DNA of 64,000 bases from NCBI RefSeq assembly GCF_946463545.1, contig NZ_OX296583.1:1432902-1496901 (forward strand), given 5' to 3'. The notes beneath the pieces were generated by a model. The model did no database searches. It worked only from the letters and a program-made list of their open reading frames with translations, and was not told the origin of the DNA. Position numbers and translations under genes: made by a program. This stretch comes from Methanothermococcus thermolithotrophicus DSM 2095. Lineage in GTDB: Archaea; AGJL01; Methanococci; Methanococcales; Methanococcaceae. This document shows positions 1,811 through 64,000 of this stretch, one piece after another (the first letter of the stretch is position 1; each line of letters starts with the position of its first letter).

Positions 1811-2034
1811 AATCACCTGAGTGAAACGAAGGTGAGTTACAAAAACCGTTAGGTTTTTGTTCAATCCCTACCTTAATAGGCGGAGGTTATTAAAAAAGTT
1901 AATGGTTATTTATCTAAATATTTGATTATATATGAAAATAGCTAATAAAATTAAATAAAGTTAACCTCCAAATCCTTTAAAAAAGGATTTGGAATCCCAA
2001 ATCCGATACCTCTTCACTTCGTGAAGAGATATAT
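1811..2034. repeat. Hairpin repeat elements in the selU-argJ intergenic region
   Basis: GAGTTACAAAAACCgttaGGTTTTTGTTCAATC (1834-1866), CCAAATCCtttaaaaaaGGATTTGG and CTCTTCACttcgGTGAAGAG. Confidence 0.6.
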
Positions 2035-6066: not shown

Positions 6067-6534
6067 TTATTCGAGCTCCTTTAAAATTTTCTCAATGATG
6101 GGTTTTAATTTTGTGAGCCCCTTTCTAATCAGTTTCCAAATTAAATTATAATCAGCATCCCAATATTGGTAAAGTAGGCTGTTTTCTATTTCTTCTAATT
6201 TTTTAAAAGGTACATTTTTATATTTTTTCTTAAATTCTTCATCAATATATTTTGACGCTTCCCCTATAATTATCAAACATTGAGATACTGCATCTTTTGT
6301 TAGTTTGTCATTTAAAAATTCTTTGTAATTCATATTTTTTGTAAATTCGATGGTGTAATTAATATTTTCTAAAATATCAGTTAAAAATACTTTATTATTT
6401 TTTTCAAATTTGTATATTAATTCGTCATCAGTTGATTTTATTAATTCTGATTTAATATTGTTTTTAAGTATTAAATTTATATTTTCATTAAATAAGTTCT
6501 CCAAATAATTTTCTAAACTTACATAATTATCCAA
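6067..6534 (-). CDS. HEPN-like protein; upstream in-frame sequence (6535-6660) encodes a truncated minimal-nucleotidyltransferase motif
   Basis: The frame stays open upstream to 6660 and encodes ...TPDIDILVEFEDE..., the nucleotidyltransferase catalytic motif. There is no start codon or GS motif. This looks like a 5'-truncated MNT-HEPN fusion next to a hairpin repeat. Confidence 0.35.
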   Translation of the reverse strand: MDNYVSLENYLENLFNENINLILKNNIKSELIKSTDDELIYKFEKNNKVFLTDILENINYTIEFTKNMNYKEFLNDKLTKDAVSQCLIIIGEASKYIDEEFKKKYKNVPFKKLEEIENSLLYQYWDADYNLIWKLIRKGLTKLKPIIEKILKELE

Positions 6535-6686: not shown

Positions 6687-6740
6687 AAGGTTTTCGTAGC
6701 GAAGCGGAGAGCTACAAAAACCGAAGGTTTTTGTTTAATC
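6687..6740. repeat. Hairpin repeat element upstream of the truncated MNT-HEPN gene
   Basis: GTAGCgaagcggagaGCTAC, then ACAAAAACCgaaGGTTTTTGTTTAATC. Confidence 0.65.
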
Positions 6741-13300: not shown

Positions 13301-13540
13301 CTCGACAGGGTGTTGAAACTTATTGAAATAGGCGGTGTATCTAAAAATACCATAAAAACTATACTGGATAATATTAAAAAAATAAATAATAATAGTGGCA
13401 TGCTTGATTTATTCAAAATGTATAACGAGATAAAAAAAGGAATACCTTATGATTTATTCCAAAAATTAGAATTTAACTCATCGGCAAATATTGAGGGGCC
13501 TAAGGAAATAATTCTTTCTGAATATTTAGTGGGGAAGTAA
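10337..13540 (+). CDS. PLD-family nuclease fused to SNF2-family helicase (defense-type helicase-nuclease)
   Basis: N-terminal HxK...GSxN phospholipase-D motif (KIHAKLYIM...GSSNFT). SNF2 motifs GLGKT, DESH and SAT are present. The C-terminal helicase domain has the ...QRVGRINR motif. Confidence 0.85.
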   Translation: MNTDLSFLTNEKGNKLVDRFSILLKDTKFFDCLVGYFYASGFYALYKSLENTEKIRILVGINTDKKTFDLIQEAAGDIKKYRLSFKEVKENFSESIISEMETSEDSCTVEEGIKKFIEWLKSGKLEIRVYPKAKIHAKLYIMSFKEGDRDKGRVITGSSNFTRSGLVDNLEFNVELKTRSDYEFALNKFNELWEDSVDVSEEYVRTVNKKTWLNEDITPYELYLKFLYEYMKEKINLDLTDEFESKFRPDNFMDLKYQRDAVQDAKLKLEEYGGVFISDVVGLGKTYIATMLVQQLGGETLVIAPPVLIDERNPGSWKNAFYDFGVRGRFVSRGNLDMAFEYGIENFKNIIIDESHYFRNESTEMYEKLFRICSGKRVILVSATPLNNKPMDILAQIKLFQNVHNSTLPNPKVRDLEKFFKKLDARLKGVDRRKDKEKYMKIVQENAKEIRENVLQYLMVRRTRKSIEKYYSKDLEKQGLKFPEVQDPKPVYYEFDEKLDSIFEETLNLITKELKYARYTPMLYYKGREFDNRIIQPQKNMAGFMKTMLLKRLESSFHAFKMSINRFIGYYEKFIAGCEDGNVYISKKHLSKVFEFQENDDEESIEKLISEGKVEIYPIKDFEPKLIDDLKYDLEILKHIKEMWSSVDEDPKLDKLIDILETDDVLKDNKVIIFTESEETAKYLERELNPLFNNKVLAFSGTSDNSLRKIITENFDGKSKVKKDEYMILISTEVLSEGVNLHRSNVVINYDIPWNPSRMMQRVGRINRVDSKFDKIYIYNFFPATKINENMGLKEAAEAKIRSFIEMLGTDSRLLTDEDIKSFDLFSRLNSKETVIGEDEDDPELAYLAYLRDIRDNDKELFDKIKNLPKKARTAKKHNENYNSLITFFKKGKMRKIYQTTPEGVKELDFYKAAEILKADIDTKKMKIGMDYYAHLDMLKKEFNKVFEEEHVISKIKIRRSRNESKLIKLIKAIKQNERRLTDDDVEYLDRVLKLIEIGGVSKNTIKTILDNIKKINNNSGMLDLFKMYNEIKKGIPYDLFQKLEFNSSANIEGPKEIILSEYLVGK

Positions 13541-13541
13541 A

Positions 13542-15143
13542 ATGGATAGAAAAAATGCCGTAAAACTTGTTGAAAAAACTTTTGGGGGAGAGTTTAATGA
13601 GGATAGGTATTTAGAATTCGTTATCGAGATGTTTGGAGACAGTAGTTTTTTAAAATCTCCTAAGGAATATTCGATGTGGGAAGAATATGCTGAATATACT
13701 GATTCTCTCAAATATTACGGGACATATACGGACAGTTCCAATAAAACAATAGATGTTCTATCTGTGAGATTAAAAAAAGATAAATATGTTACTAAGTCGA
13801 GGACTGTGCAAAGGAACATTATTTTAAAGTGGATTGGGGGTACAAACAAAGATGGTGCATTAGTTGCATTTTACAGTGATGAGCTCGACGACTGGCGGTT
13901 TTCATTTGTTAAAATGGAGTATAAAATTACAGAAGATTTTAAAATTGAAAAGGGTTTTACTCCTGCTAAAAGGTGCTCCTTTTTAGTTGGGAAAAATGGG
14001 GCAAACTATACATGCAAAAAAAATTTTTTAAGATTGATAGTAAATGAAAATAACCCTGCTTTGGAAGAAATTGAAAACGCTTTCAATGTTGAAAATATAT
14101 CTGATGAGTTTTTAAGAAAGTATGAAAATTTATTTTCGGGTAATACTCATAACTTAAAAATTGAAGAATCACAAATAATGGACTTAAAACATATAATGTT
14201 AGATTATGGGCGTTTGCCACTTGATAATCATCAAAAAAATATTTTAGATAAACTATTGAAAACCACAAGTAAAAACATTAAACGTTTCTTAATTAAGTAC
14301 AAAAACAACTGTAATTATATACCCATCTCTGATTTTAAATTGAGAATGTTATTGTCGGATGAAGAATTAATTTTGTGTATCTTTAAAAATATGAAGTATG
14401 TGGGGAAAAATATAATATATTTGGATAAAACAGAATCAGAAATTGAAAAGGAACGCATTGAAAAAAACCAATTTAATAAATTGTTACTAAAATATAAAGA
14501 CTTATATTGTCCAGATGGTCAAATTGAGATCATATATAAGATTCTTAAGTCTCAGACAGATGAACTAAAAAATATGTTGCTAAATTATGAACATATGTCA
14601 CTTGATAATCATCAAAAGCAAATTTTAGATACAATACTGAAAACTATCGGTAGGAAGATATCATACATGAATATTTGGGTACATGATAAAGGCGGGATTA
14701 CGAATACATACTCTTACAAAAAATACAAAATGAAAATGAGTAATAAAGACTTTGCATTATTTATTCTTAAAAATGCAAAGTGGAAAAATGGGACACTATA
14801 TATTAATGAGCATAAGTGTGAAAAACAGTCATCAACTTTAAAGAAAGACAATACAGTCAAAAGAAGGGTAAAAACTAAAATGGTTATAACTTCATCAAAG
14901 AAAGTTGGAAAGTTGGAAAATATAATCATAAATAATAAATTAATGGTTAAAAAAGTTATGAGCTGTAAGTTTAATGATAACAATAATAAACTAATAGTTT
15001 ATGTGGAGCATAATAAAAAACCATTAAAAATAACTATTATTGGAAAAAATAATAAACATATTTGTTATATAAACCAGAAGGGACTTAAAAATAAAGAAAT
15101 AAAAGAAATTAAAAATAAGTATATAACACATTTAACAATTTGA
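13542..15143 (+). CDS. Paralog of the Type IIG enzyme N-terminal nuclease-like domain fused to a K/N-rich C-terminus with an internal ~30-aa duplication
   Basis: The first ~200 aa are near-identical to the N-terminus of the 15225 gene. Some DNA tracts are 100% identical. A candidate PD-(D/E)xK core is D...ELDDW...VKMEYK. The C-terminus carries two LDNHQK.ILD..LKT repeats. Confidence 0.55.
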   Translation: MDRKNAVKLVEKTFGGEFNEDRYLEFVIEMFGDSSFLKSPKEYSMWEEYAEYTDSLKYYGTYTDSSNKTIDVLSVRLKKDKYVTKSRTVQRNIILKWIGGTNKDGALVAFYSDELDDWRFSFVKMEYKITEDFKIEKGFTPAKRCSFLVGKNGANYTCKKNFLRLIVNENNPALEEIENAFNVENISDEFLRKYENLFSGNTHNLKIEESQIMDLKHIMLDYGRLPLDNHQKNILDKLLKTTSKNIKRFLIKYKNNCNYIPISDFKLRMLLSDEELILCIFKNMKYVGKNIIYLDKTESEIEKERIEKNQFNKLLLKYKDLYCPDGQIEIIYKILKSQTDELKNMLLNYEHMSLDNHQKQILDTILKTIGRKISYMNIWVHDKGGITNTYSYKKYKMKMSNKDFALFILKNAKWKNGTLYINEHKCEKQSSTLKKDNTVKRRVKTKMVITSSKKVGKLENIIINNKLMVKKVMSCKFNDNNNKLIVYVEHNKKPLKITIIGKNNKHICYINQKGLKNKEIKEIKNKYITHLTI

Positions 15144-15224
15144 ATATATATTGATTCCAAAAATAGATTTAATCGGTTAGTAGGTATGAGGAACTTAAAT
15201 AAAACTTTTTTGAGTAGTTAATAG

Positions 15225-18200
15225 GTGGAACCAATGGATAGAAAAAATGCCGTAAAACTTGTTGAAAAAACTTTTGGGGGAGAGTTTAATGAGGATAGGT
15301 ATTTAGATTTTGTTGTTGAAATGTTTGGGGATAGTAGTTTTTTAAAAGAATCTCCTAAGGAATACCTGTGGAAAGAATATAGTGAATATGCCGACTATCT
15401 TAAGTATTACGGCACATATAAGGATAGCTCCAATAAAACAATAGATATTTTATCTGTAAAATTAAAGAAAAACAAGTATAGGGATAGATCAAGGACTATG
15501 CAGCGGAACCTTATTGCAAAATGGCTTGAAAATGCAAATAAGGACGCTGCAATAGTTGCATTTTATGGCGATGAGCTCGATGACTGGCGGTTTTCATTTG
15601 TTAAAATGGAGTATAAAATTACAGAAGATTTTAAAATTGAAAAGGGTTTTACTCCTGCTAAAAGGTGCTCCTTTTTAGTTGGAAAGAACGAACCAAACCA
15701 TACCTGTAAAGAAAGATTTCTTGGCATGATAATAGCTGAGAAAAACCCAACTTTAGAGGAAATTGAAGAAGCATTCAGTGTTGAAAATGTATCCGATGAG
15801 TTTTTCAAAGAATATAAGGAGTTATTTTTAGATTTAAAAGATGAGCTCGACAAATTATTGGAATGTGATAAGGACATTAAAAAGGAATTTGAAGAAAAAG
15901 AGATTTCTACAGTGGATTTCGCTAAGAAATTGCTTGGACAGATTGTATTTATATACTTTCTCCAAAAAAGGGCTGGCTTGGTGTTCAAAGAGACCCTGAA
16001 ACTGGGAAGTTTAAAGAATGGGGAGCTGGTCCAAAAGATTTTTTAAAGAGGTTGTATGCGGGAGAATATGCCAAATATGAAAATTTCTTTAAGGAGATGT
16101 TGGAACCATTATTTTATGAAGCGTTATCTACTCAGAGGGATGATTACTATTCTCCTTTTGACTGTAAAATCCCTTTCTTAAATGGGGGACTATTTGAACC
16201 TATTGGGGGCTACAATTGGAAAGAAATTAATTTAAAATTGGACAATGGAATTTTTGAAAAAATTTTTAATGTCTTTGATAAGTATAATTTCACAATAAAA
16301 GAGGATGAACCACTGGATAAAGAGGTTGCTATTGACCCTGAAATGCTTGGGAAGGTTTTTGAAAACCTATTGGAGATTAAAGATAGGAAATCAAAAGGGG
16401 CATTCTATACTCCAAGGGAAATAGTGCATTATATGTGCCAGCAGAGTTTGATTAATTATTTGGAAACGAATACGGACATTCCACGGGAAGATATTGAAAA
16501 ATTCATATATCTCAGTGGATTTTCAACTTCGGAATATCAAAGAAAATTAATTGAACTTGAAAAAATAAATGAACAGATGAAAAAGTTTAACAATGTTTTA
16601 TCAAAAGGATACAGAAAATTATTAAATGAGCGAATAAAGTTAATTAAAAATATAAACTTTCCAAAAAGCATATTGGATAATATAGAAAAAGTTGATGAGC
16701 TATTAAGATGCGTAAAAATAGCAGACCCTGCGGTTGGTTCTGGTGCTTTTCCAGTTGGGATTATGAATGAGATTGTAAAGGCAAGGTCTATATTAACACC
16801 TTTCTTAATAGCAAAGAATAGTGCAAAAATGGAAGACCGGACACTTTATAAATTAAAATGGGAAACTATTCAAAACTGTTTATACGGCGTAGATATTGAT
16901 TCATCTGCTGTGGAAATTACAAAACTTAGGTTTTGGTTATCGTTGGTGGTGGATGAGGATAGCCTAAATAATATAAGGGCATTGCCAAATTTAGACCATA
17001 AAATAATGTGTGGAAATAGTTTGTTGGATGAATTTGAAGGAATAAAACTTTTTGATGATAGTATTCTTGAAATTCCCGAAGAAGAAGATAAAGAACCTGA
17101 GGAATTAAAAAAATTGAAAATTGAAAGGGAAAATTTAGAAAAAACCGCTAAGGAATTGATGTTAAAACAAAAATGGAAGGAACTTGAACCAGTAAGTAAA
17201 AAATTAAATGAATTATATGAATATATTAAAAAATTGGAAAATCAATATAAAAAATCAAAAAATAAAAATTTGAATGATTTACAATCTCAAATTACACTGT
17301 CCGATGCTATAAATATTAGGCGGAAAAAATCACAGGAGAAACTTGCAGAGCTCAAAAAATTGTATAAAGAATATTTCAATGCCCGAGCTAAACGGGATAA
17401 AAATGAGTATAAAGAAAAAATAGAAAAACTTGAATGGGAGCTCATAGAGGAAACACTAATAGAATCAGGAAATGAAGATGCACTGGAAAAATTGAAGCAG
17501 TATAAAAAATCAAGGTCAAAACCATTTTTCTTATGGAAGTTGTACTTTTCAGATGTATTTAGGAGAGAAAACCCTGGCTTTGATATAGTAATAGGTAATC
17601 CACCTTATGTAAGGCAGGAAAAAATAAAAGAATTAAAACCCGCACTTGAAAGAAATTATAAAACATATACTGGAGTTGCTGACCTTTATGTTTATTTCTA
17701 TGAGTTGGGATATAATATTTTAAGAGATGAGGGAGTTTTAGCATATATTACAAGTAATAAATGGATGAGAGCAAATTATGGCGAAAAATTAAGAAAATTC
17801 TTTAAAGAAAATACGAGTATAAAGGAAATTATTGATTTTGGAGGGGAAAAGGTATTTGAAACTGCAACAGTGGATACAAATATTTTGATATTTAAAAAAG
17901 GATATAAAAAAGATAATTTAATGTCTGCGGTGGATTTCACAAAAATTAAAAATTATAATGGATTTATCGATGGGATAAAAAGCAATAGGTTTAAAATACC
18001 GCAATCAGATTTGAAAGAAAATTCCTTTAATTTATCGCCACCAGAGGAATTAAATTTAAAAAAGAAGATTGAAAAAATTGGAATACCTTTAAAGGATTGG
18101 GATATAAAAATAAATTATGGAATTAAAACAGGTTTTAACGATGCTTTTATAATTGATGGAAAAACTAAGGATGAATTAATTAAAAAAGACCCAAAGAACA

Positions 18201-19048
18201 AAGAGATAATAAAACCGATTTTAAGGGGAAGGGATATAAAACGATATGGTTATGAATTTGCGGATTTATGGTTAATTTTTGTTCCTTGGCATTTTCCATT
18301 GCATAATAATTCATCAATTTCTGGGGCATCAGAGGAAGCCGAAAAGGCATTTAAGGAGCAATATCCTGATATATACAACCATTTGCTAAAATATAAGGAA
18401 AAATTAAGTAAACGAAATAAGGCTGAAACTGGAAAAAGATATGAATGGTATGCTTTACAGAGATGTGCCGCTTCGTATTATAAGGAGTTTGAGAAAGAAA
18501 AAATAATTTATCCAGAATTTAGTAGTTCATCTTGCTTTTATTTTGACAATGGGAAATATTACACATCTGATACGGCATGGTTTATTGTTGGAGGTTCTAA
18601 ATATTTGATGGTATTACTTAACTCGAAGGTAATATGGTTTTACTTAGAAAACATGGTATCCCAGCTCGGTTCGAAAGCCCTTAGGATGAAAAAAATATAT
18701 TTAGAAAAACTACCTATCCCAAAAATCCCAGAAGACCAACAAATCCCATTCATAGAAAAAGCGGATAAAATGATTGAATTAAATAAAAAATTCATAAATA
18801 AAAAGAATGAATTTTTAAAATCATTAAACCTAACTAAAATTACTAAGAAATTAGAAACATTTTATAATTTAAGTTATGAAGAATTCCTAAAAGAATTAAA
18901 GAAGCAAAAAATTAATACAGATTCTTTAAACGATTTAGAAAACCGCTTCAACAGCTACAAAAAGGAATTAATGGAAATAAAACAGGAAATAGAAAAAACA
19001 GATAAAGAAATCGATAAAATGGTTTGTATAATCCTAAAAAAACTATAA
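15225..19048 (+). CDS. Type IIG restriction-modification enzyme (N-terminal nuclease domain plus gamma-class N6-adenine methyltransferase plus target-recognition domain), interrupted by a frameshift at a T6 run (16039-16044)
   Basis: The ORFs 15225-16046 and 16052-19048 join into one frame if T6 is read as T7. Methyltransferase motif X (GAFYTPREIV), motif I (ADPAVGSGAFP) and motif IV (GNPPYV) are present. Confidence 0.8.
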
Positions 19049-22502: not shown

Positions 22503-25500
22503 TTAACTAAAATCAAACAAAGTTTGCTGACCATATTTCAAATCAAATTCTTCTAAGACTTTTTTTCCGATTTTATCTCCAAGCAAACTGATGACTTTTG
22601 ACTGGTTCTTTGGAATGTCATCTTTGCTTTTTATTCCAGCGTTGTATAGTTTTCTGGCCCTAACTCTTCCAACGTGTTTAATTTTGAGTAACTCAATGAT
22701 ATCTTTTTTAGCACCATACTCGAGTCTTATCTCCAATTCAGATAAACAGTCTTTGATTTGTTCATTTTTTAAATTTAATTGATTAAATATTTCTTTTGCA
22801 GAATATGCCATCCATTTAGCCTGTTCAACTTTGTACTTTAAAATCCCAGGTTCAATTCCATACCTTTTTAATATATCCTCCTCTGGAACCTCATTAATCC
22901 AGTCGTAGAACATCTTTGCAGTTTTAAAGCTTTCTAAATTTTCCCAGGAATAATCATCAATATTTAAGTCCATCATTTCTAAAATTAAATCTTCTTCTTC
23001 ATGATTTCTTACTCTTAAAGGGGGCCTCATTTCCGTGGTCATTGACAGTACATATAACATATAGAGCTCTAGATTTGTATTTAACTCAGAGGATTTGTTG
23101 ATCTTTTTTAATCCATCTATAATTATTTTTGCACTATATGGATCAATATACAGTTCTGAAACTCTTTTCCCAAGTTTTGTTGGTGTAAATGCAACGATAA
23201 AATCATAATCCTCTAAAAAATCAACGACTTCTTTTACATTCCTCAAAACTCCTTGGAGACTTCCATACTGGTGAGCATAAAATGTGTTTTTTATAAAGTT
23301 TTTTAAATCCATTTCATTTTCAACTTCCCTCGTGGATATCAATCCAAGGATATGGGTTCTAAGAACTTTTTGATTGGAAAGTTTTGAGTATATGTCCTCC
23401 ACCTTTCCAGTTAAGTATTCAAAACCTTTTTCAACATCGTTTGGATTTTTTATATAGACTATTCCTTCACCATAAGGATCTAAACCAGGTCTCCCGGCTC
23501 TTCCAATACATTGCTGAATTTCCATTTTTGAAATTGGAGCCATACCTCTACCGGAAAATCTCTTTAAATCCCTTACAATTGCTCTTCTACAAGGTAAATT
23601 TAGTCCAGCAGAGTTATGTACTATAAATCCATTTGCCACAACATAATGGTCATTTGTCCCATCATCTGGTAGTTCTATGTCATAAGCATATTTGTCATTT
23701 ACCTTTATTTTTTTAATTTCTTTGATCATGCTCCAATAAATATCTCCATCATAATATTCTTTTTTCCAACTATGTCTCATTTCTTTGTAGAGTGGCTTGC
23801 CACAAATTGGGCATTTTTCAAGATTTACTAAGAAGTCATACATTTCTTCTAAGTTCTCTTTATCTTTTATATTTTTATTAAGAAGATTCATTAAAATTTT
23901 TCCTTTATCATTTAGAGAATAATATACTCCTTTTTTATTTCCACCTATCTTTTCTCTTATGATAAACTCAAAATGGGGATTCTTTCTCTTTGAATAGTAG
24001 TTATTGTAGTTCATAACCAATTTTTTTCCATTTAATAGTTCAAAAAGTAATTTTACACGCTCTTTATTTAATTCATTCTGACTTTTTGTTCTTGGCTTAA
24101 ACATAGTTAAATCAATGCTAAATCCGCAATCACACCACATTTTAGCAATTTCCTTACTTTTTACGATTTCTTCCAATTTTCTTCTTTTTTCCTTGTGTCT
24201 CAGTGGAATATTTTCATAAAATCTTTTTACACTTACAAAATCACCAATTATTAGTTCATAAATATCTCTACTTTTGTATTCTTTATTATTTGTTGGCGAT
24301 CGAAGCGAATCCTTTGGATTCGCTGTCGAAGCAAATCGAAGATTTGCTGACTCACGAAACCTTCGGTTTCGTCGAGACTTACAAAACCTGAAGGTTTTGT
24401 TAAGCTTCATAACTTTTCCTTTTCTTTTTCTAATGGTGCTATGTATTCCAAACCTCAATAATGCTAATTGTAGTTTTTTGATTAGATTTTCTGATATCGA
24501 AGAGAATCCTATTTTCTTTCTGTTGGCATTAATGTATCCATCACTATCAAACAACCCTGCAATAAAGTGTGATAACTTTTCCAATGGAAGAATGTAAAAT
24601 ACATCAATATTTTTGTTATCCTTAGTGAGCATATTTAATTCATTAAATACTTCCCTTAGTCTTTTTGAATATACATAATGAGAAACATTTCCTTCCTCTT
24701 TAATTTTTAAAAAGTATTTTTTGTGAAGTTTAGAGTCATCAAAATTTGGCGGGTATTTTGGATTAAACGTAATATCGGGACTACCTCTAAATACATTTTT
24801 TTCGATAACACCGGTATAGCCATCTCCTATAAAATATCCAATGAAATAAAGGTCCCCATAGGATAAATCAATATCTCTTTCTTCAACCACTATTTTATCA
24901 GCAGTAGCCACATAGTCCCCCACTTTTAAATCCTTTGCTTCTTTTTCACAGGTCTCTTTTCCTTTTTTAACTAAGAACAAATGATTGGGGGTTGTGGTAA
25001 TTTTTAGCCCATTTGCGGTTTTTACAACAATATTATATTCATGTTGCGGGGTTTTATGAACTTTCCAACAATCCACTGGTCTTATTTTATTTCCACACAA
25101 TGCAAATACCTTTTCATTTTTATTCAATTCTGTAATCTTTTTAAATCCACTTTCTTGCAATATCTCGGTATTTGCATTTAAACAGAGTGTCGGAGTACAG
25201 CATATAACCTTTATCAGTTTCTTTCTGAATCCTTCTTCAACTATTTTCCTCTGTTCATAGGTAAGACCTGCATGGTGAAATGCCACCCCTTTTTCAATAC
25301 ATTCTGCAAGAGCTCTACAGGTTTCAGTTGGTGGATCGAATATGCTTAAAACTTCGTCTTTCAGTTTTTGAAGTTCGTGTTTTTCACTGTGGGATAAGTA
25401 TTTCTTTAAATTCAATTTTTTTGCTTCACTAACCGCTCCTCTCTTAGAATTACAAAAAATTAAACATGAACCATCTTCATCGATACAATCTACAACCAAA

Positions 25501-26261
25501 TTCATAATGTCATTTTTATAACTATCGTTTAGGGGTTTTTGGAGTGAGCGAAGCGAACGGAGAGCAACGAAATCACTCTTCGTGATTTCGTCTAATGAAT
25601 TATTTTCATCAATGTATTCTATTTTGTTTTTATAGAATATTCCTTTTTTTAATTCCACAGGTCTCCAATCATCAATTACAAGTGTTGCATTTAGCCAGTT
25701 TGCAAGTTCCTCTGGATTCCCAACAGTTGCAGACAAACCGATTAATTGGATATTATTTAAATTCTTTAATTTCGTTAAAATGATCTCAAGGGTTCCTCCT
25801 CTTTCATCATCCCCTATTAAATGGATTTCATCTACCACTACAACAGAAACCTTATCTATCCAATCGATCCTATGTCTCATTAAAGAATCAAGTTTTTCAG
25901 CAGTAGTTATGATTAGATCGTAGCTCGATAAATTCTCTTTTTCATCAAAATCTCCAATGGACAAAGCCACTTTTAAACCATATTTTTCATATTTTTCTTT
26001 AAACTCGTCGTATTTTTCATTTGCAAGGGCTTTTAATGGAACTATAAATAGTCCCTTTTTCCCTGTCGGTTGTTTGTTTTCATCCAATAGATGGTTTATT
26101 AGGGCTATCTCTCCAATAAGGGTTTTTCCACTGGCTGTAGGGATGCATATTAAAAAATTCTTTTGTTTATCAAGTAGTCCATGTTCCAATACCTTTTTTT
26201 GCGGCGGCCTAAGTTCCGTTATGCCGTTGTCGTTTAATACACTAAAAACATAATGCTGCAT
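22503..26261 (-). CDS. hel308: Hel308/Hjm Ski2-type DNA helicase containing a 524-aa intein
   Basis: Walker A PTASGKT and DEIH motifs are present. The intein is inserted in motif VI (TPTL|C...HN|SAGLNLPCRR). The extein portion is about 728 aa. Confidence 0.85.
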   Translation of the reverse strand: MQHYVFSVLNDNGITELRPPQKKVLEHGLLDKQKNFLICIPTASGKTLIGEIALINHLLDENKQPTGKKGLFIVPLKALANEKYDEFKEKYEKYGLKVALSIGDFDEKENLSSYDLIITTAEKLDSLMRHRIDWIDKVSVVVVDEIHLIGDDERGGTLEIILTKLKNLNNIQLIGLSATVGNPEELANWLNATLVIDDWRPVELKKGIFYKNKIEYIDENNSLDEITKSDFVALRSLRSLQKPLNDSYKNDIMNLVVDCIDEDGSCLIFCNSKRGAVSEAKKLNLKKYLSHSEKHELQKLKDEVLSIFDPPTETCRALAECIEKGVAFHHAGLTYEQRKIVEEGFRKKLIKVICCTPTLCLNANTEILQESGFKKITELNKNEKVFALCGNKIRPVDCWKVHKTPQHEYNIVVKTANGLKITTTPNHLFLVKKGKETCEKEAKDLKVGDYVATADKIVVEERDIDLSYGDLYFIGYFIGDGYTGVIEKNVFRGSPDITFNPKYPPNFDDSKLHKKYFLKIKEEGNVSHYVYSKRLREVFNELNMLTKDNKNIDVFYILPLEKLSHFIAGLFDSDGYINANRKKIGFSSISENLIKKLQLALLRFGIHSTIRKRKGKVMKLNKTFRFCKSRRNRRFRESANLRFASTANPKDSLRSPTNNKEYKSRDIYELIIGDFVSVKRFYENIPLRHKEKRRKLEEIVKSKEIAKMWCDCGFSIDLTMFKPRTKSQNELNKERVKLLFELLNGKKLVMNYNNYYSKRKNPHFEFIIREKIGGNKKGVYYSLNDKGKILMNLLNKNIKDKENLEEMYDFLVNLEKCPICGKPLYKEMRHSWKKEYYDGDIYWSMIKEIKKIKVNDKYAYDIELPDDGTNDHYVVANGFIVHNSAGLNLPCRRAIVRDLKRFSGRGMAPISKMEIQQCIGRAGRPGLDPYGEGIVYIKNPNDVEKGFEYLTGKVEDIYSKLSNQKVLRTHILGLISTREVENEMDLKNFIKNTFYAHQYGSLQGVLRNVKEVVDFLEDYDFIVAFTPTKLGKRVSELYIDPYSAKIIIDGLKKINKSSELNTNLELYMLYVLSMTTEMRPPLRVRNHEEEDLILEMMDLNIDDYSWENLESFKTAKMFYDWINEVPEEDILKRYGIEPGILKYKVEQAKWMAYSAKEIFNQLNLKNEQIKDCLSELEIRLEYGAKKDIIELLKIKHVGRVRARKLYNAGIKSKDDIPKNQSKVISLLGDKIGKKVLEEFDLKYGQQTLFDFS
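23613..25184 (-). mobile_element. Intein with LAGLIDADG homing-endonuclease domain inside hel308
   Basis: Starts with Cys after TPTL and ends with His-Asn followed by Ser. LAGLIDADG-type blocks LYFIGYFIGDGY and IAGLFDSDGY are present. Confidence 0.8.
24295..24412. repeat. Multi-hairpin repeat element inside the intein coding sequence (in frame)
   Basis: Contains GCGAATCCtttGGATTCGC, GCAAATCgaaGATTTGC, GAAACCttcgGGTTTC and CAAAACCtgaaGGTTTTG. It encodes an Arg-rich peptide FRFCKSRRNRRFRESANLRFASTANPKDSLRSP. Confidence 0.7.
25541..25592. repeat. Hairpin repeat element inside the hel308 extein coding sequence (in frame)
   Basis: Contains GAGCGAAGCGAACGGAGAGC plus the ACGAAATCACtcttcGTGATTTCGT hairpin. 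It encodes DEITKSDFVALRSLRSL between helicase motifs. Confidence 0.65.
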
Positions 26262-26755
26262 TTTTTATTCACCAGCCATTTAATGAGCTCTTATAATTGT
26301 CCTACAAATATGTAAGTTATCTACCTTTAAATCTAAACTTAAAATTTGTTAAATAAATTCCAATTAAAATTTAATGATATTTATAGTGGTGTGCATTACT
26401 TACTAAACATAAAATAAACTGTTAATTGAAAAATATGGTTTATTTAGTACTGTTATTCAATTTACGATATATTGATCGGTTTATTTAAATTGCACACCAA
26501 TATATATCACCCTTCGTAGAACGACTATAAATATCAAAAATTGAGTTTAGTGATATTAATTAAAAGGATTTTTGAATTTAAATACTTTTTATAATTCCAT
26601 ATATTAATAATATACAATAATATTTTTTGTAAAACAATATTCAAAATTATTACAAAAATTATATGGGAAAACTATAAATATGAAATATTATAATAACGTA
26701 ATACTGTATTAAGTTATCTTAAAATAGTGTGAAATAATGCAAAAAAGGTGAAAAC

Positions 26756-31200: not shown

Positions 31201-31585
31201 GATTTCATCTCGTTTATTTTAATCTAAATAAAATTCACTTCAATTATTTTAATTCTCCTTGTTAAATTGTAAAGATTGCCGTCCCCTAATATAGTGATGT
31301 GCAATTTCAATTAGTATATTACACACATTTAAATTAAATCGAGACAAATTCCAAGGAATTTTAGACTCACAAAACCATCGGTTTCGTCGAGAACATAAAA
31401 TATTGTTTAATTTGAAAATATGACAATTAAAAATAAATTTCAGGTGCAGTTTATTCGTAATACACACTCTCTATAAAACACCGACTACTATTACTACCAT
31501 TGTAACATAGTATATAATAATATATAATATTAAATTCTTAAAATTCAACGTACTATATTGTGTAAAAAATATCAAGGGGGTAACA

Positions 31586-33456: not shown

Positions 33457-33950
33457 AATCCCACCATTTATAAATAAATGTCGTTTTATTATATGATAAA
33501 ACCTTCGGTTTTGTCGATTAGTTTTTTAAAAACAACAATATTAGTAAACTCCTAATTTTACAACCTACATTTAAATTTTAAGTATAAAAAGGTTTTTAAC
33601 TAATTATTTAAAAAGGTATGGCACAAAAATTAAGCAATTTGTGTAAAGAATATATGCAATTATTCACAAAAATAATAAATTAGTATTTTTTTAGTATTAT
33701 CAAAATAGATAGTTTATTAATTTTCCTTTTTAAAAATATAAAAAATATGCCATTGTAATTTACAAAGGCATAATATGCATTATAACAGTTTCGAGTTTTA
33801 CTTAAAGGAAATTCGAAACTTAATTTATAATTGTGAATGTAATAAAGTGATATTATTTTTATCCTTTATCCATTTTGGACAAAATTAAAAGTACTCCAAA
33901 AAAACCAAAATATTATATATTCTAAAAATCAAATTATATTTTGTGATATT

Positions 33951-39022: not shown

Positions 39023-40586
39023 ATGAAGTTTAGGAATTTGTTGATTGGGATATTATTAGTTGGGATTTTTGTAAATGTTGGAGTTGTTTTTGGAGAGGAT
39101 GTTGTAAAGCCAGAGTGGGCATATCATTTAGGTGATTGGGCAAGTGCTATATCGATAACTCCTGATGGAAAATATATCGTTGCTGGAACGGGGGGCTATG
39201 GAGGTAATGGTGATTATAAAGTTTACTTATTTAATAATAAAGGAAACTTACAGTGGTCTTATAAAATAGATGGTAAAGTAGAATCTGTGGCAATAACTCC
39301 AGATGGTAAGTATATAGTTGCGGGAACATGGTTTGACAAAAATGGAAATAATCATAGAGATTCAGAAGACTATGGGAAAGTATATCTTTTTAATAAAGAT
39401 GGAAATTTATTGTGGAGTCGTAATTTAAATCCTACAGTATATGATGTTTCAATATCTTCTGATGGAAAATACATTGTTGTAGCATATTCCAATAAGCTTT
39501 CTGTTTTTGATACCAAAGGGAATCTATTATGGTCATATGAAACATACAGGTGGATATACTCTATATCGATAACTCCTGATGGAAAATATATCGTTGCAGG
39601 AACTGGCAGCACCGGTGACTATGGTAGGGTTTATCTATTTGATTAATGAAGATAATGTATTGTGGAGTTATAATGCGGGTTTTGTTAGATATGTTTCCAT
39701 AACTCCGGATGGAGAATACATAGTTGCTGGAAAAACCCCTCATGGAACAAATAATGGTCAAGATGACGAAAATACAATTTATTTATTTAATAAAAATGGA
39801 AAATTACTTATGAGTTATAATGTTAAAGGAAAAATTCGTGAAAAATCTATATCAATATCACCGAATGGTAATATTGTTGTTGGTACCTGGGTTGATGAAA
39901 ATAAAGACAATGTAATGGACCCTATGGATACAGGATATATTTACTTTTTTGATAGTGGTGGATTGAAATGGAAGTACCATACTAATGAAGGTATCCACTC
40001 TACATCCGTAGATTTTAATGGCAAATATATAGTTGCTGGAGGTACTCATGGTTCAATATACTTGTTTAATAATAATGGAGATACATTGTGGAATTATAAA
40101 TTACAACGATTAATTACGGTTTCTATAGACTCATATGGAAAATACATTGTTGTAGGGTCATTATTTGATATTTATTTATTTGATAACCAAAAAATATTAG
40201 AAATTTTAAAAGAAAAAGACAATGGAACACTTGAAATATCATCAAATCTACCAAATGCTAAAATTTATATTGATGGCAAATATAGTGGATTAACTCCAAA
40301 AACTATTAAATTACCGCCTGGAACTTATGAAATTACACTAAAAAAAGAAGGATACAGCGATTATAAGACCATACTAACCATCAATGGTGGAGAAACTAAA
40401 AATTTAAACGTTAATTTAAAACCTGTAGTTGCAGAAACAACTAATACACCCAATACTAAAGAAGAAAAAGTTTCTGTGGGGACTAATACTAATAAGGATA
40501 ACAACAACCTGTTATTTATAATCATGGGGCTATTAATAACTGGCGGAGTAGTAGGTGGGATTTATTATGCAAAAAAAAAGGCATAA
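39023..40586 (+). CDS. Secreted, C-terminally membrane-anchored PQQ-like beta-propeller protein, interrupted by a 1-nt frameshift near 39641-39646
   Basis: Signal peptide, then repeated ...ISITPDGKYIVAGT...VYLFN..GNLLWSY blades. Deleting one nt in GATTAAT restores ...RVYLFDNEDNVLWSY. C-terminal transmembrane helix. Confidence 0.7.
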
Positions 40587-49725: not shown

Positions 49726-50862
49726 TTAGTTTATGGTTATATTGTATTTTGAAACCTCATCAAAATATCCCAAAATTGATAGATATCCATTATTGTTTTC
49801 ATCATTTTGTACATATTTATCACCATAATATCTTTGATGAGGATAATTGGAGATACCATAATAATATATTTTAACCTTGAATTTTTCCCCATTATTTATG
49901 TTTTCAAGGTTTTTTACGCCGTACCCTATCAATGTGTTGTTTTCATTGTAAAAATTTACTTTTATGTAGATTTGCGTATTATCATCTGCGATATTCTCTC
50001 CAATTAACTCCACATAAGGTCTTCCATTGTCTGACATTAGTTTTTGACTGATTATTTTAGTATCATTTTGATGACTAATCATAGGATAATAATCTATACC
50101 AAAAATAGGGAATAACTTGCATTTTGAAATTGTGTAGTTGTTATACACCCAATCGTTGTTGTTGGTTTTAAACTTGAATGTCTCATTTGGTTCTATATTG
50201 TACAAATGAACCCTATTTTGACTTATTAATATGTTATTTTTATCATAATATTTTATAAAAACATATCCATCAACATATTTATTATTGGTATTTTCGCCTA
50301 TAACTTCGATAATCTGGCTGTTGTTGTGTTTTAAAATATTGTATCTAATTTTAACAGGTACTCCGTGGTTTCCATTTTCATTGTAAAATAGCGTATCTTT
50401 ATAACATTTTACCGATAAATTAACTGTTGATACGGAATCAACATAGTTTGAAGGACATTTTATTTTTGCTTTAAATGTTTCGCCCGGATTTATATTATCA
50501 AATTTTTCTTTGAAACTACCTATTACATAGCCATCTGAATCATACAATTTGGCATAGATAACACAATTACCTGAGATATTTCCAATATTTTTACCAATTA
50601 CCTCTATGTATGCGTTGTTGTGGTTATTATTGTTGTTATTCCCCTTATCACCATTGTTTTCAAATATTAACTTATAATTAACTATCTGAATTAGGTTTTG
50701 CTCCTCCATCATATCTTCAAATGGTATTGCATTTCTAGGGTCATTGATGGAGCTCCATACAAAATAAATAGATGATGCTATTATGATTATCAGTACAATA
50801 TTTATCAAAATCGATATACTTAGAAGTATATTTTTACCATTCATACATACATCCCTTTGCAA
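49726..50862 (-). CDS. Membrane-anchored N/Y-rich protein with three tandem ~90-aa beta-rich repeats
   Basis: N-terminal transmembrane helix. Three repeats begin YIEVIGKNIG..., IIEVIGENTNNKY... and YVELIGENIADDN... Confidence 0.4.
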   Translation of the reverse strand: MQRDVCMNGKNILLSISILINIVLIIIIASSIYFVWSSINDPRNAIPFEDMMEEQNLIQIVNYKLIFENNGDKGNNNNNNHNNAYIEVIGKNIGNISGNCVIYAKLYDSDGYVIGSFKEKFDNINPGETFKAKIKCPSNYVDSVSTVNLSVKCYKDTLFYNENGNHGVPVKIRYNILKHNNSQIIEVIGENTNNKYVDGYVFIKYYDKNNILISQNRVHLYNIEPNETFKFKTNNNDWVYNNYTISKCKLFPIFGIDYYPMISHQNDTKIISQKLMSDNGRPYVELIGENIADDNTQIYIKVNFYNENNTLIGYGVKNLENINNGEKFKVKIYYYGISNYPHQRYYGDKYVQNDENNNGYLSILGYFDEVSKYNITIN

Positions 50863-51586
50863 AATTAGAATTATGTTAATAAATTATCTATATCGACAAC
50901 ATTGTATATAGTCAATTGATACTATTTGAAACAAATGAAACCAATTGCATGACCTAATAGATATTAATAACAATTTTTTTCTCAATCGATATTATGGTGA
51001 GGTTATGAGACATGTTAAAAAGACGATATTGGTGTTGGGGGTTATGGTATTATTATCTTCAGTATATGCAGATACTGCCCCAAAAGTAGTTAAAGCATAC
51101 CTTGGAGTAGATACTAAAGGGTAATTTTTAATATTATTATATTTCCACAATAGTTTTCTTTGATTATTTAGTAAATTATTAGTTAGTAAATAAATATATT
51201 CTAGCGTGGGTCATATTTCCTATTATTTAAATAAAATTATACCATTTTACTATCTATGTATATAACTAAAACTTAAAAATCATAAGGAACTTATAAGTAA
51301 TTTGGATTTTGACCCCACTAATAATATTCTTCTAAAATCAAGTAGAAAACATTATATATTAGTGTTAGTATTACTCACTTAATTAAACATAATAATTATG
51401 ATATTCCAAAACTAGATATTTTTATCAACACTATATATTTATATATTTAAAATTATTTAAAATATATTAAGATTAATTAATATATCGAAAAGTTTAAATA
51501 TAATAATTTCTATTTAATATATTTGTGAATATCAATCTAAAATTAAATAGTCAAATAAATATTATAAAATAAAAAAAGGTGAATTA

Positions 51587-53369: not shown

Positions 53370-53660
53370 TTAATCACTCGCTCGCTATTATTGTAGTTAA
53401 TCTCCAAACCTTTTAAAAAATCGAAGCAAATCACCAGCTTGTTAGTGAGCTACAAAAATTACGAAGTAATTTTTGTTTAATCAGAGCTCACGAAGTGAGC
53501 GTTATAAAACCTAACGGTTTTTAAAACCCTTAACAGGTTATGAAAATCATAATTTCAAAATCTCACTTTAGTTCGGAAATGTAGCAAAATGCGAAGCGAA
53601 GAGCTACAAAATCACTTCATGATTTTGTTCAATGCGAAGGTTTTCGTCTAATTTTAGGTA
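53370..53660. repeat. Array of GAA-triloop mini-hairpin repeat units (largest copy of the family)
   Basis: Units such as GAGCTACAAAAATTACgaaGTAATTTTTGTTTAATC, GCTCACgaaGTGAGC, AAAACCtaacGGTTTT, GTAGC...GCGAAGC...GCTAC and CAAAATCActtcaTGATTTTG. Confidence 0.7.
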
Positions 53661-54194
53661 ATACTTATGTGCATACCATTCGCAGAACGACTATATATTC
53701 ATCTATATCGACAACATTGCATATGTAATAATGAAAATTACTTTATATAATCGTAACATCCATGATGAGCTCAGGAACATTCGTAATAAAATTGCACATG
53801 CTGATGTTGGTGAATGGTAAATCGAACAATGCCATTGGAAAAACAGATGAGTATTACAAAAAAGTAAAAGAAACGCTGAATAAAAAAGAGTTGTTTGATT
53901 TGCCAAAACAGTTACCTATGGAAAAACTGGTAGAGCTGTATGGGATCCAAAAAAATGGTAATATCCAAAATGCCTACCAGTGTTTATCACCCATAATTGT
54001 AAAAAAATTATGTAGTATTTATGATCTGAATTCAAAAAAAACAGTATGATTGTAACTTAACAATTGAAAAATTTAAAAGTTTGTTTAACTTAAAATCCTC
54101 AATTTAAAAACTATAAACTGCAGGAAATTATATGAAATTCCTTCGGAATTTCATCGATTTCTTGCAGATATGTTAGAATTGCACCCCACCATAA

Positions 54195-57883: not shown

Positions 57884-58288
57884 GTATTAATAATAATTTT
57901 AATAATCGTATATAAAATTTACTATTTAATTTAAATTTTTAATATTATAATAATATAAAATTTTAAAAAGTATTACTAAATGAGTTGATACTTATTTTCC
58001 AATAAAATTTTAATAGACAGGGAAAAGTTATTGCGATAAATGAGGCGTTGAATTTGGACCGTAGGTAAAAAATCGTATAAACTAATTGCATATCTAAATA
58101 TATTTTAAAAATATTGAAATTAATTTATATATTGAAAAGTTTAAATTTGTCAAAAATGAAAAATATAATAGTTTGCGTTAAATATTGAAATATACTCCAA
58201 TAAATTTAAGAAAGATGGATTATTTTAAAATTTGAAGCATAAACATTTTACAATTATTCAAGAATTTCGAAACATATAAATATCAACT

Positions 58289-58335
58289 GCAACCGTAGGT
58301 TGCAGGGAAGTTGAATAATCGTAGATTATTCAACT
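58289..58335. repeat. Two adjacent perfect hairpins in the fdh/DUF89 divergent intergenic region
   Basis: GCAACCgtaGGTTGC and GTTGAATAATCgtaGATTATTCAAC. Confidence 0.6.
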
Positions 58336-58677
58336 AATTTTAATAAAATTCACAAAAAACAACTAAATATAAAACATATGTTGACAACTATTTCAATTTC
58401 TATAGCAAGTAATAATAAATATGTCCTAAACAATCAAAAATATAAACAATAGAAACCATATCATAAAAAATTATAAAAATAAAAAACAATAAACTCATAA
58501 ATATGTCCTAAACAATCAAAATAACCAAAACAACTGAATTGAGAAGCAAACTACTAACAAAAAGAAAAATAAAAATCTTATAGGATATTATAAGTATATT
58601 ATAAGCATCTATAAAGATATTTTATCAACTTCTTTATTGGATTAAAAATTTATCTATTACTGATTTATGGTGATATT

Positions 58678-62426: not shown

Positions 62427-62816
62427 TAGTTTATTTTTTTAAATTTTTTATCTATCTTTAATAGTCTTCATTATTTTTTAATTTTATTTGTTTATTGTTT
62501 TTATTTTTCAAATACAAGCATAGATTACCAATCTCGAACCGATCACGTTTTATGATTGTTGTATATATTTAGATTTAATAATTTATAAAGATATTGTTTA
62601 GTCATGGTGTTAGAGACGGTTTTATCATGTTTTCCTTACAAATATTGTTTATTTTTTTGTTTATGCAACTGCATGTTCTTTATTTTAGAAAATAAAACCA
62701 ATTATCAAGTCGCACGTCTTTATATATGGAGCTCCAGATCATAGGTTCGAGATAAAAAGTTTTAAATAATGGAAGATACAACCTTCTTTATAGGGAAATA
62801 AGGAAAATTCTTAACT

Positions 62817-63054
62817 GTTAAAATCAGACCATTGTGGGATGGAAATCTTTTTGTGTTCTCTCATTTAGTTCTTCCTTAGATTTTTTACGTTAAAATCAGA
62901 CCATTGTGGGATGGAAATGAAATAAAATCTGACATTTTTTTTACCTCCTTTATTTGTTAAAATAAGACCATTGTGGGATGGAAATTTTGCAGTCGATAAA
63001 TGTAATGGTGAAAGGGGAATTTCTGTTAAAATCAGACCATAGTAGGAAAATAGA
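62817..63054 (+). CRISPR. Mini CRISPR array with 4 repeats (3 spacers), repeat GTTAAAATCAGACCATTGTGGGATGGAAAT
   Basis: Repeats at 62817-46, 62889-918, 62956-85 (1 mismatch) and 63025-54 (degenerate terminal). Spacers are 42, 37 and 39 nt. An AT-rich leader lies at 62430-62816. No cas genes are in the window. Confidence 0.8.
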
Positions 63055-63060
63055 AATATA

Positions 63061-63232
63061 CCTACTCAACGAAGTTGAGTAGGTATCAGATTTGGGGATC
63101 CAACACCTCTCGACGAAAACCTGAAAGGTTTTCGTGAGTCTCGACAAAAATTCAAAGAATTTTTGTGAGTCAGCGAATCCTTTGGATTCGCTTCGACAGC
63201 AAATCGAAGATTTGCTTCGATTTATAAAGGGG
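63061..63232. repeat. Multi-hairpin repeat element immediately 3' of the CRISPR array
   Basis: CCTACTCAACgaaGTTGAGTAGG, CGAAAACCTgaaAGGTTTTCG, ACAAAAATTCaaaGAATTTTTGT, GCGAATCCtttGGATTCGC and GCAAATCgaaGATTTGC, separated by TCGAC/GTGAGTC flanks. Confidence 0.7.
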
Positions 63233-64000
63233 TTGGAAATAAATGTCTTGTAGCAAATTCTTTTGCCCAGTATGTTATTATAAAGTCTGCTCCGGCTCGC
63301 TTAATGCTTAAAAGAGTTTCATAAATTGTGGCATCCCTATCAAGCCAGCCTTTTTCAGCTGCAGCTTCCACCATTGAATACTCTCCACTTACGCAATAGC
63401 CCCCAATTGGCACGTTGAAGTTATCTTTAGCCATTTTTAATATATCCAAATATGGAAGTGCAGGTTTGACAAGTATTAAATCAGCACCTTCTTCTATGTC
63501 CAACTCAATTTCTCTTAAGGCTTCCTTTGAATTTCCGGGATCCATCTGATAGGTTTTTCTATCTCCAAATTTAGGGGCACTTTCTGCAGCATCCCTAAAA
63601 GGACCATAAAATGCAGAAGAATACTTTGCCGCGTAGCTCATTATGGCAACATTTTTGTGGCCGTTTTCTTCTAAAACTTCCCTAATTTTTCTAACTCTTC
63701 CATCCATCATGTCAGAAGGAGCCACTATATCGGCACCACTTTCAGCATAGGATAATGCTATCTTACCTAAGATTTCAAGGGTTTCATCGTTTAAAATTTC
63801 ATTATCTTTAACTATACCACAATGTCCATGAGAAGTATATTCGCACATACAAACATCAGCTATAACTAAAAGTTCATCCCCAAGTTCTTCCTTTATTTTT
63901 GAAATTGCCTTTTGAACTCCGCCATTCATATCGTAGGCTGAAGAGGCTACTTCGTCTTTGTATTTCGGAATTCCAAATAAAATAACGGCAGGAATTCCTA
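63222..64000 (-). CDS. hemB: Porphobilinogen synthase (delta-aminolevulinate dehydratase), partial; N-terminus beyond window end
   Basis: The frame stays open to position 64000 (...[31 protein letters not shown]...). Conserved HemB C-terminal half. Confidence 0.85.

Follow-up and report, generated by a model that had tools for sequence, protein, structure and literature searches.

What are the small palindromes that recur along a 64,000-nt stretch of the Methanothermococcus thermolithotrophicus DSM 2095 genome (contig NZ_OX296583.1, positions 1,432,902 to 1,496,901; here called the window), and what is the array of them in the interval 53370-53660? A first-pass annotation made from the letters alone had described them as a dispersed family of hairpin repeats. 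We find that the units are probably mobile, selfish, non-coding hairpin modules that spread at the DNA level by insertion. Discrete units with fixed ends have been inserted, with no visible duplication, into intergenic DNA, beside and inside one another, and into hairpin loops. Existing modules and hairpin loops are the preferred sites, and insertions in genes survive as extra peptide where the frame stays open.

Hairpin modules in the window

The window, with a G+C content of ~31%, was scanned for perfect hairpins with a stem of at least 7 bp, a loop of 3 to 5 nt, and at least 2 G/C. Stems of 7 to 13 bp were found at 1839, 1967, 2010, 6714, 24304, 24330, 24354, 24381, 25567, 53452, 53606, 54132, 58287, 58309, 63058, 63113, 63144, 63172, and 63198, and hairpins were recovered at each locus listed by the first-pass annotation. 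Perfect stems of at least 8 bp numbered 22; 3.5 were expected, and none of 30 dinucleotide shuffles had more than 8. Two motifs that combine flank and stem base, TACAAAA..TTTTGTTYAATC (3 matches) and CTCGACRAAA..TTTYGTGAGTC (4 matches), were each expected 0.00 times. Folded as single-stranded DNA, the arrays at 24301-24405 and 63058-63240 gave z scores of -8.3 and -8.5 relative to shuffles. The window holds ~25 modules in total.

Several module types were distinguished. Type A is a 54-nt double-hairpin unit, ATCGGAGTGAGCGAAGCGAACGAAGAGCT-ACAAAA(variable top and loop)TTTTGT-TCA(ATC), whose first part is swapped in some copies for other small hairpins (TCACCAAC..GTTGGTGA and others). Type B (CTCGACRAAA..TTTYGTGAGTC) and type C (TCGA(C)-AGCRAATC..GATTYGCT-TCGA) are single hairpins of 27 to 32 nt each, and the two co-occur in a block of four hairpins, 105/106 nt long, whose ends are fixed. 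The S-linker-T composite, ~70 nt, consists of an S hairpin (ATACCTACTCAAC-loop-GTTGAGTAGGTAT), a linker (GATTTTGGAATC), and a T hairpin (CCAAGCCTTTT-loop-AAAAGGCTTGG). Its minimal form occurs at window 1965-2034 and in L030 (loci compared with the window carry the prefix L), and forms with 1 to 7 further modules between linker and T occur at window 63058-63240 and in L015, L025, L026, L047, L052, L053, and L055.

Four copies had been said to have common flanks. The shared-flank motif is real, but the fourth copy (53601-53634) ends in ...TCAATG and not in AATC; a fifth, diverged copy is present at 25562-25597. Within the flagged interval, the array itself covers ~53400-53652. Hairpins are likewise present at 58289-58335, although the covariance model described below leaves the membership of that locus in the family uncertain.

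The loops had been described as dominated by GAA on one strand and closed by C:G. A C-G closing pair was found in 79% of 164 distinct hairpins; 36% of loops are GAA/TTC, and 16% are AAA/TTT. Because the loops are 3 nt long, the opposite strand carries C-TTC-G triloops, and its reading as a cUUCGg tetraloop was wrong. The comparison drawn with the stable d(C-GAA-G) DNA mini-hairpin fits: on the strand defined by the conserved flanks, 18 loops read GAA and 4 read TTC. C-GAA-G reportedly forms the center of the exceptionally stable d(GCGAAGC) mini-hairpin (Hirao and colleagues). The strand asymmetry would suit a hairpin that is used on one of the two DNA strands.

Distribution and covariation of type A

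The exact type-A pattern was sought in one genome per prokaryotic species (GTDB representatives) and was found only in Methanothermococcus genomes and in two contigs labeled bacterial. One of these, L013, proved to be a chance terminator-like hairpin. The other, L015 (JASGMZ010000119.1, in a Bacteroidales metagenome-assembled genome [MAG] bin), is syntenic with window 63058-63930, carries the matching archaeal repeat array, and is probably mis-binned Methanococcales DNA. A metagenome scan added ~30 more real type-A copies, and metagenomes and sequencing-run assemblies contain contigs that match portions of the window at 99% identity. A contig co-occurring with these encodes a protein to which one source gives the name Methanothermococcus sp. 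By sequence, the family appears to be restricted to the Methanothermococcus/Methanococcus aeolicus-group lineage. A blastn search of a plasmid collection with two arrays gave no match, and no description of these repeats was found in the literature on M. aeolicus or Methanothermococcus.

A covariance model was built from 12 length-normalized seeds, 4 of which were idealized versions of real copies, and was run on 415 kb of loci from related genomes and metagenomes. It returned 82 matches representing 57 distinct type-A copies, so that copies exist well beyond the window; there were no matches in ~50 kb of Methanocaldococcus and M. maripaludis sequence, including 28 kb of Methanocaldococcus sp. 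FS406-22. The covariation that had been proposed from a few copies is genuine and holds in this larger alignment. Standard pairs fill 99.8% of 506 cells, changes on both sides occur at 7 of 9 pairs, and there are 82 compensatory cells; the observed values were not reached in 500 shuffles, and slid controls collapsed. The alignment was fitted to the model and hence favors structure, a caveat that is eased because the raw copy list shows the same Watson-Crick pattern: the stem bases are ACAAAA/TTTTGT, ACGAAA/TTTCGT, ATAAAA/TTTTAT, ATGAAA/TTTCAT, and GTAAAA/TTTTAC, and at least 8 different stem tops are likewise all Watson-Crick.

A further multi-copy element of ~150 nt was noted in a Methanothermococcus MAG (L007 to L011; e.g., L010 4618-4780) and in strain Ax23 (L012 255-405), where it lies immediately upstream of a tnpB gene. 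It has a GC-rich outer stem (TTTCGGCGAGAAGTCCCC...GGGAGGGGATGAAAGCCGAAA) around three hairpins, one of which is type A. The hairpins show compensatory differences between the MAG and Ax23, several copies lie at contig ends, and there was no Rfam match.

Filled and empty sites

Presence or absence of modules between close strains supports insertion. In L056, a 106-nt four-hairpin block (ACTTGAC...GGATTCGCTTCG) lies inside a gene for an MNT-type nucleotidyltransferase (antitoxin) and shifts its frame; the block is missing from L029 and L037, which match L056 at 99% identity in the flanks. The paralogous block at window 24301-24405 has the same ends as the L056 block. It adds exactly 35 codons (LNKTFRFCKSRRNRRFRESANLRFASTANPKDSLR), in frame, to the LAGLIDADG endonuclease domain of the Hel308 intein. 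This block is missing from the 90%-identical allele L016 and from two more intein-bearing orthologues, P0003 and P0004, and the empty site reads gttatgaa|ATCACCAAC. Conversely, the L016 helicase contains an in-frame 54-nt type-A unit (18 amino acids) at a position that is empty in the window. At the CRISPR-side locus, the orthologous L047 carries a type-A unit that is missing from the window, and its internal modules also differ from those of the window.

Other type-A units have also been accommodated within proteins. The copy at 25541-25597 lies in the helicase gene in antisense orientation without breaking its frame (peptide ..DEITKSDFVALRSLRSL..), and the linker at this position is shorter in other orthologues. 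In-frame type-A units were also found in an M. okinawensis glycosyltransferase, a HepT toxin, and a TnpB, and the antisense-frame peptide ..FVALRS.. recurs in the helicase, HepT, and glycosyltransferase.

No target-site duplication was seen at the clean filled/empty junctions, where the ambiguity is only 1 to 3 nt. At three of these 3 to 4 junctions, the 3′ flank starts with AT. The comparison between strains bears out the proposal of a REP-like (repetitive extragenic palindromic) family, in that the units are dispersed, modular, and palindromic and vary in presence between close strains.

Two other observations were made on these loci. HepT-like toxin genes recur beside the repeats, with type A upstream of one (window 6067-6534) and an in-frame unit within HepT in L029. 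A 66-nt indel (window 50407-50472 compared with L035) was considered as a module and rejected as an ordinary deletion in a gene.

Weighing of alternative explanations

The annotation had left open a REP- or MITE-like (miniature inverted-repeat transposable element) origin or a structured RNA, with a terminator or mRNA-stability role at operon ends. Were the hairpins transcribed as terminators, mRNA 3′-end stabilizers, or small RNAs, selection for RNA folding would keep the covariation; the strong predicted folding, the near-perfect covariation, the T-runs after many stems, the preference for GAA on one strand, and the position of some copies between convergent genes would all suit such a role. 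However, no orientation bias relative to transcription was seen among 62 units (18 sense versus 21 divergent on the 5′ side; 17 sense versus 24 antisense on the 3′ side). Many copies, including several in the window, are placed between divergent genes or immediately before a start codon, which does not fit an operon-end element, and archaeal transcription termination relies on oligo-T tracts rather than hairpins. Eleven of the 62 units fall within open reading frames (ORFs) of at least 110 codons, and copies in proteins are read through in frame in either orientation. G·U pairs occupy only 5 cells (~1% of paired cells). The loops vary more than any other part, and copies whose stems are identical often have loops that are exact reverse complements: TGAAA versus TTTCA in the first B hairpin, which is orthologous between the window and L047, GAA versus TTC in S hairpins, and GAA, TTC, and AAA in type A with the stem ..CTC/GAG. 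Loop inversion is a product of recombination or template switching within a DNA palindrome and is difficult to square with an RNA loop whose sequence matters. No match to Rfam 15 at the gathering threshold was found across the whole window (at E values up to 1, the arrays gave only sub-threshold chance matches), and a tRNA/tmRNA scan found none. Together with presence/absence between near-identical strains, these data favor mobile DNA over structured RNA; the covariation does not indicate a functional RNA, and we consider a structured RNA origin improbable. The REP part of the earlier proposal stands, whereas its RNA part is not supported and the tests for a MITE, given below, point elsewhere.

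The modules could instead be decayed IS200/IS605 (tnpA/tnpB) insertion sequence (IS) ends or omega-RNA scaffolds (PATE-like) and not an independent family. At two loci, a TnpB gene encodes OrfB_IS605 and Cas12f1-like_TNB domains, and family modules are found at both ends of tnpB elements in L048/L062 and L061. In L048/L062, an outer stem (left, CCAACGA..TCGTTGG; right, CCCACGA..TCGTGGG) surrounds 40 to 110 nt of modules. The stretch from the stop codon of tnpB to the hairpin of the right end contains a type-A unit. Moreover, the type-A 3′ flank TTTAATC resembles the loop and stem of an IS end hairpin (TTTTAA-TCG), and this IS family likewise leaves no target-site duplication. In L061, however, which is 80% identical to L062, both end hairpins have a plain 6-nt TTTTAA loop (CCAACGA-TTTTAA-TCGTT(GG) and CCCACGA-TTTTAA-TCGTGGG), the right one complete and the left one with two small hairpins after TCGTT. 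A 59%-identical tnpA (Y1_Tnp) and tnpB element of Methanocaldococcus sp. FS406-22 (L064) has plain GC-rich end hairpins and is entirely free of modules. This presence/absence of modules in otherwise conserved ends, together with the module-free Methanocaldococcus element, indicates that modules invaded the IS ends, hairpin loops included, and an origin of the family from IS200/IS605 ends was rejected after this comparison. The IS end hairpins themselves (CCAACGA..TCGTTGG; Methanocaldococcus CACCGCCC-TTTA-GGGCGGTG) are unlike the module hairpins, and the window has no tnpB despite its many modules; we judge the IS-end explanation unlikely. Finally, the sequences might be immobile: they could be palindromes bound by proteins, or could have arisen by local slippage or by amplification of palindromes and only appear dispersed. 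Arrays made of similar neighbors, short palindromes (TCGA) in the spacers, and array differences that may reflect unequal recombination or deletion agree with local processes. Blocks with identical ends at unrelated loci (the intein, the MNT gene, and intergenic arrays), 54-nt units in five unrelated genes, and copies in several species with differing flanks make an immobile origin very unlikely.

Possible mechanism and implications

For the modules as mobile DNA, a mechanism can be sketched by analogy. A hairpin on one strand of single-stranded DNA would be recognized by a trans-acting enzyme, as HUH/Y1 transposases recognize IS200/IS605 ends and REPs, and only copies still forming the hairpin would be propagated. 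Such propagation would explain the perfect Watson-Crick stems of many sequences, the free and invertible loops, and the C-GAA-G bias on the flank-defined strand. The enzyme step is put forward tentatively, on the model of those transposases.

Several points weigh against this reading. There are only 3 to 4 clean junctions, from which no target consensus is definable; some of the differences between arrays may reflect deletion instead of insertion; and the units may have a secondary RNA or regulatory role. No Y1_Tnp gene was found in ~380 kb of family-bearing loci by tblastn with an approximate IS608 TnpA query, and tnpA is missing from the tnpB elements found in this lineage. With a Methanocaldococcus TnpA query, the nearest named homologues were all from Methanocaldococcus, with no named Methanothermococcus or M. 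aeolicus protein. The two best unnamed TnpA candidates came from bacterial or virus-like contigs and were discarded. Clustering of 349 ORFs for recurrent neighboring protein families gave only syntenic housekeeping genes.

A bolder idea, which we regard as unlikely, is that the modules are substrates of an undescribed archaeal single-stranded DNA insertion system that acts at hairpin loops and AT-starting sites and moves units as small as 27 to 54 nt without an IS200-type TnpA in the genome. If so, the units would be among the smallest mobile DNA known, and the by-products of the system would be new peptide segments in proteins and inteins and tnpB elements with remodeled ends and possibly remodeled guide-RNA scaffolds.

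The clean filled and empty sites document current mobility of hairpin modules of tens of nucleotides in vent methanogens. Essential proteins, among them the Hel308 helicase with its intein, gain peptide segments from the modules, which also inactivate genes (for example, the MNT antitoxin) and enter the hairpins at the ends of tnpB transposons. In annotation, they account for odd insertions in Methanothermococcus/M. aeolicus proteins that are specific to this lineage and for breaks in MAG contigs. They also offer an archaeal case for asking which enzyme moves REP-like hairpins where there is no obvious transposase.

Comparison with known repeat families

The closest parallel by host order is the MJRE1-3 palindromic repeats, which, according to Suyama, Lathe & Bork 2005 (FEBS Lett 579:5281; cited in PMC2229807), reportedly occur in M. 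jannaschii only and average ~100 nt. Like MJREs, the present units occur in Methanococcales and are dispersed, palindromic, non-coding, and mostly extragenic, with few in-frame genic copies. They differ from MJREs as so described in being 27- to 54-nt modules in mosaics. The strict type-A pattern matched no Methanocaldococcus genome, and the model matched nothing in the FS406-22 sequence searched.

REP elements, bacterial interspersed mosaic elements (BIMEs), and REPINs of bacteria are associated with RAYT (Y1) transposases (PMC2817692, PMC3116915). In both, short imperfect palindromes lie between conserved flanks and join other motifs in mosaic arrays, target duplication is absent, and a single-stranded DNA hairpin is presumably used; as short (~20 to 40 nt), mostly extragenic palindromes repeated many times, the hairpins of the window and the 57 type-A copies qualify. 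The RAYT gene is typically flanked by REPs; no RAYT/TnpA was found in the loci searched with the IS608 query. REPs are one or a few sequences per genome, while the present stems are highly variable; BIMEs alternate, while the present arrays are mostly head-to-tail (window 53400-53652; L043 and L044). The 5′ flank is GAGCT rather than the conserved GTAG foot of REPs, the units occur inside genes, and the host is archaeal. A MITE is not indicated, as neither the 105/106-nt block (ends GCTTAAC... and ...GCTTCG) nor the 54-nt unit has inverted repeats at its ends and the filled/empty junctions show no duplication beyond the ambiguous nucleotides.

Rickettsia palindromic elements (RPEs; Ogata et al. 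2000, cited in PMC2229807) are reported to be likewise palindromic repeats found in frame in many unrelated proteins, to which they add a recurrent peptide (here ..FVALRS..). RPEs are 100 to 150 nt long, bacterial, and unrelated in sequence. On these comparisons, the family appears to fall among REP/BIME-, RPE-, or MJRE-like miniature palindromic repeats.

With the ends of IS200/IS605 elements and their ORF-less derivatives (PATEs), the modules share asymmetric ends with subterminal hairpins, a lack of terminal inverted repeats, and a lack of target duplication, and they are physically associated with tnpB elements in these genomes. PATEs have the ends of a cognate IS, whereas the module hairpins differ from those of the resident IS and were inserted secondarily. 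IS200/IS605 elements insert 3′ of a fixed 4- to 5-nt target; an AT-starting 3′ flank of the modules was seen at three junctions. Small dispersed repeats of cyanobacteria have reportedly been described by Elhai et al. 2008 (cited in PMC3116915). Organelle genomes also contain repetitive hairpin-forming elements (PMC2800124, PMC2670323). As reported, the cyanobacterial and organelle repeats resemble the modules in being tens of nucleotides long, hairpin forming, nested or clustered, intergenic and sometimes genic, and without a known enzyme, and differ in host and sequence.

Coordinates of modules and neighboring features

Table 1. Hairpin modules of the window, with strand, covariance-model scores (bits), and fold z scores.
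Feature	Coordinates	Strand	Remarks
Solitary 54-nt type A: CACC..GGTG hairpin, AGTT, ACAAAAACC-GTTA-GGTTTTTGT, TCAATC	1812..1866	+	42.1 bits; fold z -4.2; begins 4 nt upstream of first in-frame start codon of ORF 1149-1808(-)
Minimal S-linker-T without internal modules: S ATATCTCTTCAC-GAA-GTGAAGAGGTAT, linker CGGATTTGGGAT, T TCCAAATCCTTT-TTT-AAAGGATTTGGA	1965..2034	-	Fold z -7.7; same architecture in L030
3′ half-hairpin (AAGGTTTTCGT), leader GCGAAGCGGAGAGCT, type-A hairpin ACAAAAACC-GAA-GGTTTTTGT TTAATC	6687..6740	+	53.2 bits; upstream of HepT-like toxin gene (6067-6534, minus strand)
105-nt four-hairpin block, GCTTAAC...GGATTCGCTTCG on coding strand	24301..24405	-	Fold z -8.3; in Hel308 intein
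Type-A variant GGAGTGAGCGAAGCGAACGGAGAGCA ACGAAATCAC-TCTTC-GTGATTTCGT CTAATG	25541..25597	+	30.2 bits; in helicase gene
Solitary type-B hairpin CTCGACGAAACC-GAT-GGTTTTGTGAGTC	31364..31391	-	One G.T stem mismatch (A.C on + strand); between divergent genes; DNA repeat family D18
Degenerate solitary hairpin AAAACC-TTC-GGTTTT GTCGA	33494..33518	+	Between divergent genes; D18; model E 0.15
Flagged array of head-to-tail type-A units and relics	53400..53652	+	Between DUF166 gene and 95-aa ORF
Half T hairpin in flagged array	53400-53420	+	
Type-A unit 1 (54 nt), hairpin ACAAAAATTAC-GAA-GTAATTTTTGT	53430-53482	+	Model match 53447-53482, 36.6 bits
GCTCAC-GAA-GTGAGC and type-A-like unit 2, TTATAAAACC-TAAC-GGTTTTTAA	53484-53527	+	Model match 53499-53527, weak
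Relic CTCACTTTAGTTCGGAAATG in flagged array	53562-53582	+	
Type-A unit 3, leader GCGAAGCGAAGAGCT	53586-53634	+	Model match 53601-53634, 38.2 bits
3′ half-hairpin CGAAGGTTTTCGTCTAAT, end of flagged array	53635-53652	+	
Isolated hairpin ATGAAATTCC-TTC-GGAATTTCAT	54132..54154	.	Between convergent genes; 14.6 bits, E 0.21; membership uncertain
Two adjacent GTA-loop hairpins (CTGCAACC-GTA-GGTTGCAG; AGTTGAATAATC-GTA-GATTATTCAACT)	58287..58335	.	No model match; membership uncertain; first hairpin resembles CCGCAAC-GAA-GTTGCGG module of L062
Full composite array	63058..63240	+	Fold z -8.5; overlaps 3′ end (stop codon) of minus-strand ALAD gene; adjoins degenerate last CRISPR repeat
S hairpin ATACCTACTCAAC-GAA-GTTGAGTAGGTAT, then linker CAGATTTGGGGATCCAACACC, in composite array	63058-63086 (S)	+	
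Two type-B hairpins in composite array	63109-63140, 63140-63171	+	
Two type-C hairpins, AGCGAATCC-TTT-GGATTCGCT and AGCAAATC-GAA-GATTTGCT, TCGAC between, then T remnant	within 63058..63240	+	

The 1252-amino-acid (aa) ORF at 22503-26261(-) encodes the Hel308 helicase interrupted by the LAGLIDADG intein. The DNA of Hel308 and its intein (window 22522-26265) is 98% identical to that of M. aeolicus Nankai-3, compared with ~74% for the flanking genes, which places the window in another species of that group. Another M. aeolicus strain (CP104873, L020) has, at this position, a different Hel308 allele without an intein and is missing three genes farther downstream. Because of this difference in identity and the differing allele in CP104873, the sequences suggest a recent lateral replacement of the entire Hel308 gene, possibly driven by intein homing with co-conversion.

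A small CRISPR array at 62816-63054 has four repeats (GTTAAAATCAGACCATTGTGGGATGGAAAT, Methanococcales type), the last of them degenerate, with no obvious cas genes nearby. The hairpin composite begins 3 nt after the degenerate repeat, and the orthologous L047 has at least 8 repeats. An association of the family with CRISPR was rejected, as the S-linker-T composite occurs in many non-CRISPR contexts and is CRISPR adjacent only in the window and L047.

A defense-like cluster at 10337-19048 includes a 1067-aa protein with PLD-nuclease and SNF2/helicase domains, a 998-aa Eco57I/MmeI-like methyltransferase with a TaqI_C specificity domain, and two ORFs without Pfam matches that have a ~430-nt duplication in common (13541-13974 and 15233-15666, 83 to 94% identity). 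At 39023-40586, two adjacent/overlapping ORFs encode repeated "SPDGKYIV(A)G"-type beta-propeller blades followed by a PEGA domain (DNA repeat families D2, D3, D6, D9, and D10). AT-rich intergenic direct repeats were also noted in long gene-poor stretches, one of 64 nt with 81% identity (51436-51499 and 58083-58146) and one of ~27 nt, AATAAATATGTCCTAAACAATCAAAA (58414-58440 and 58497-58523).

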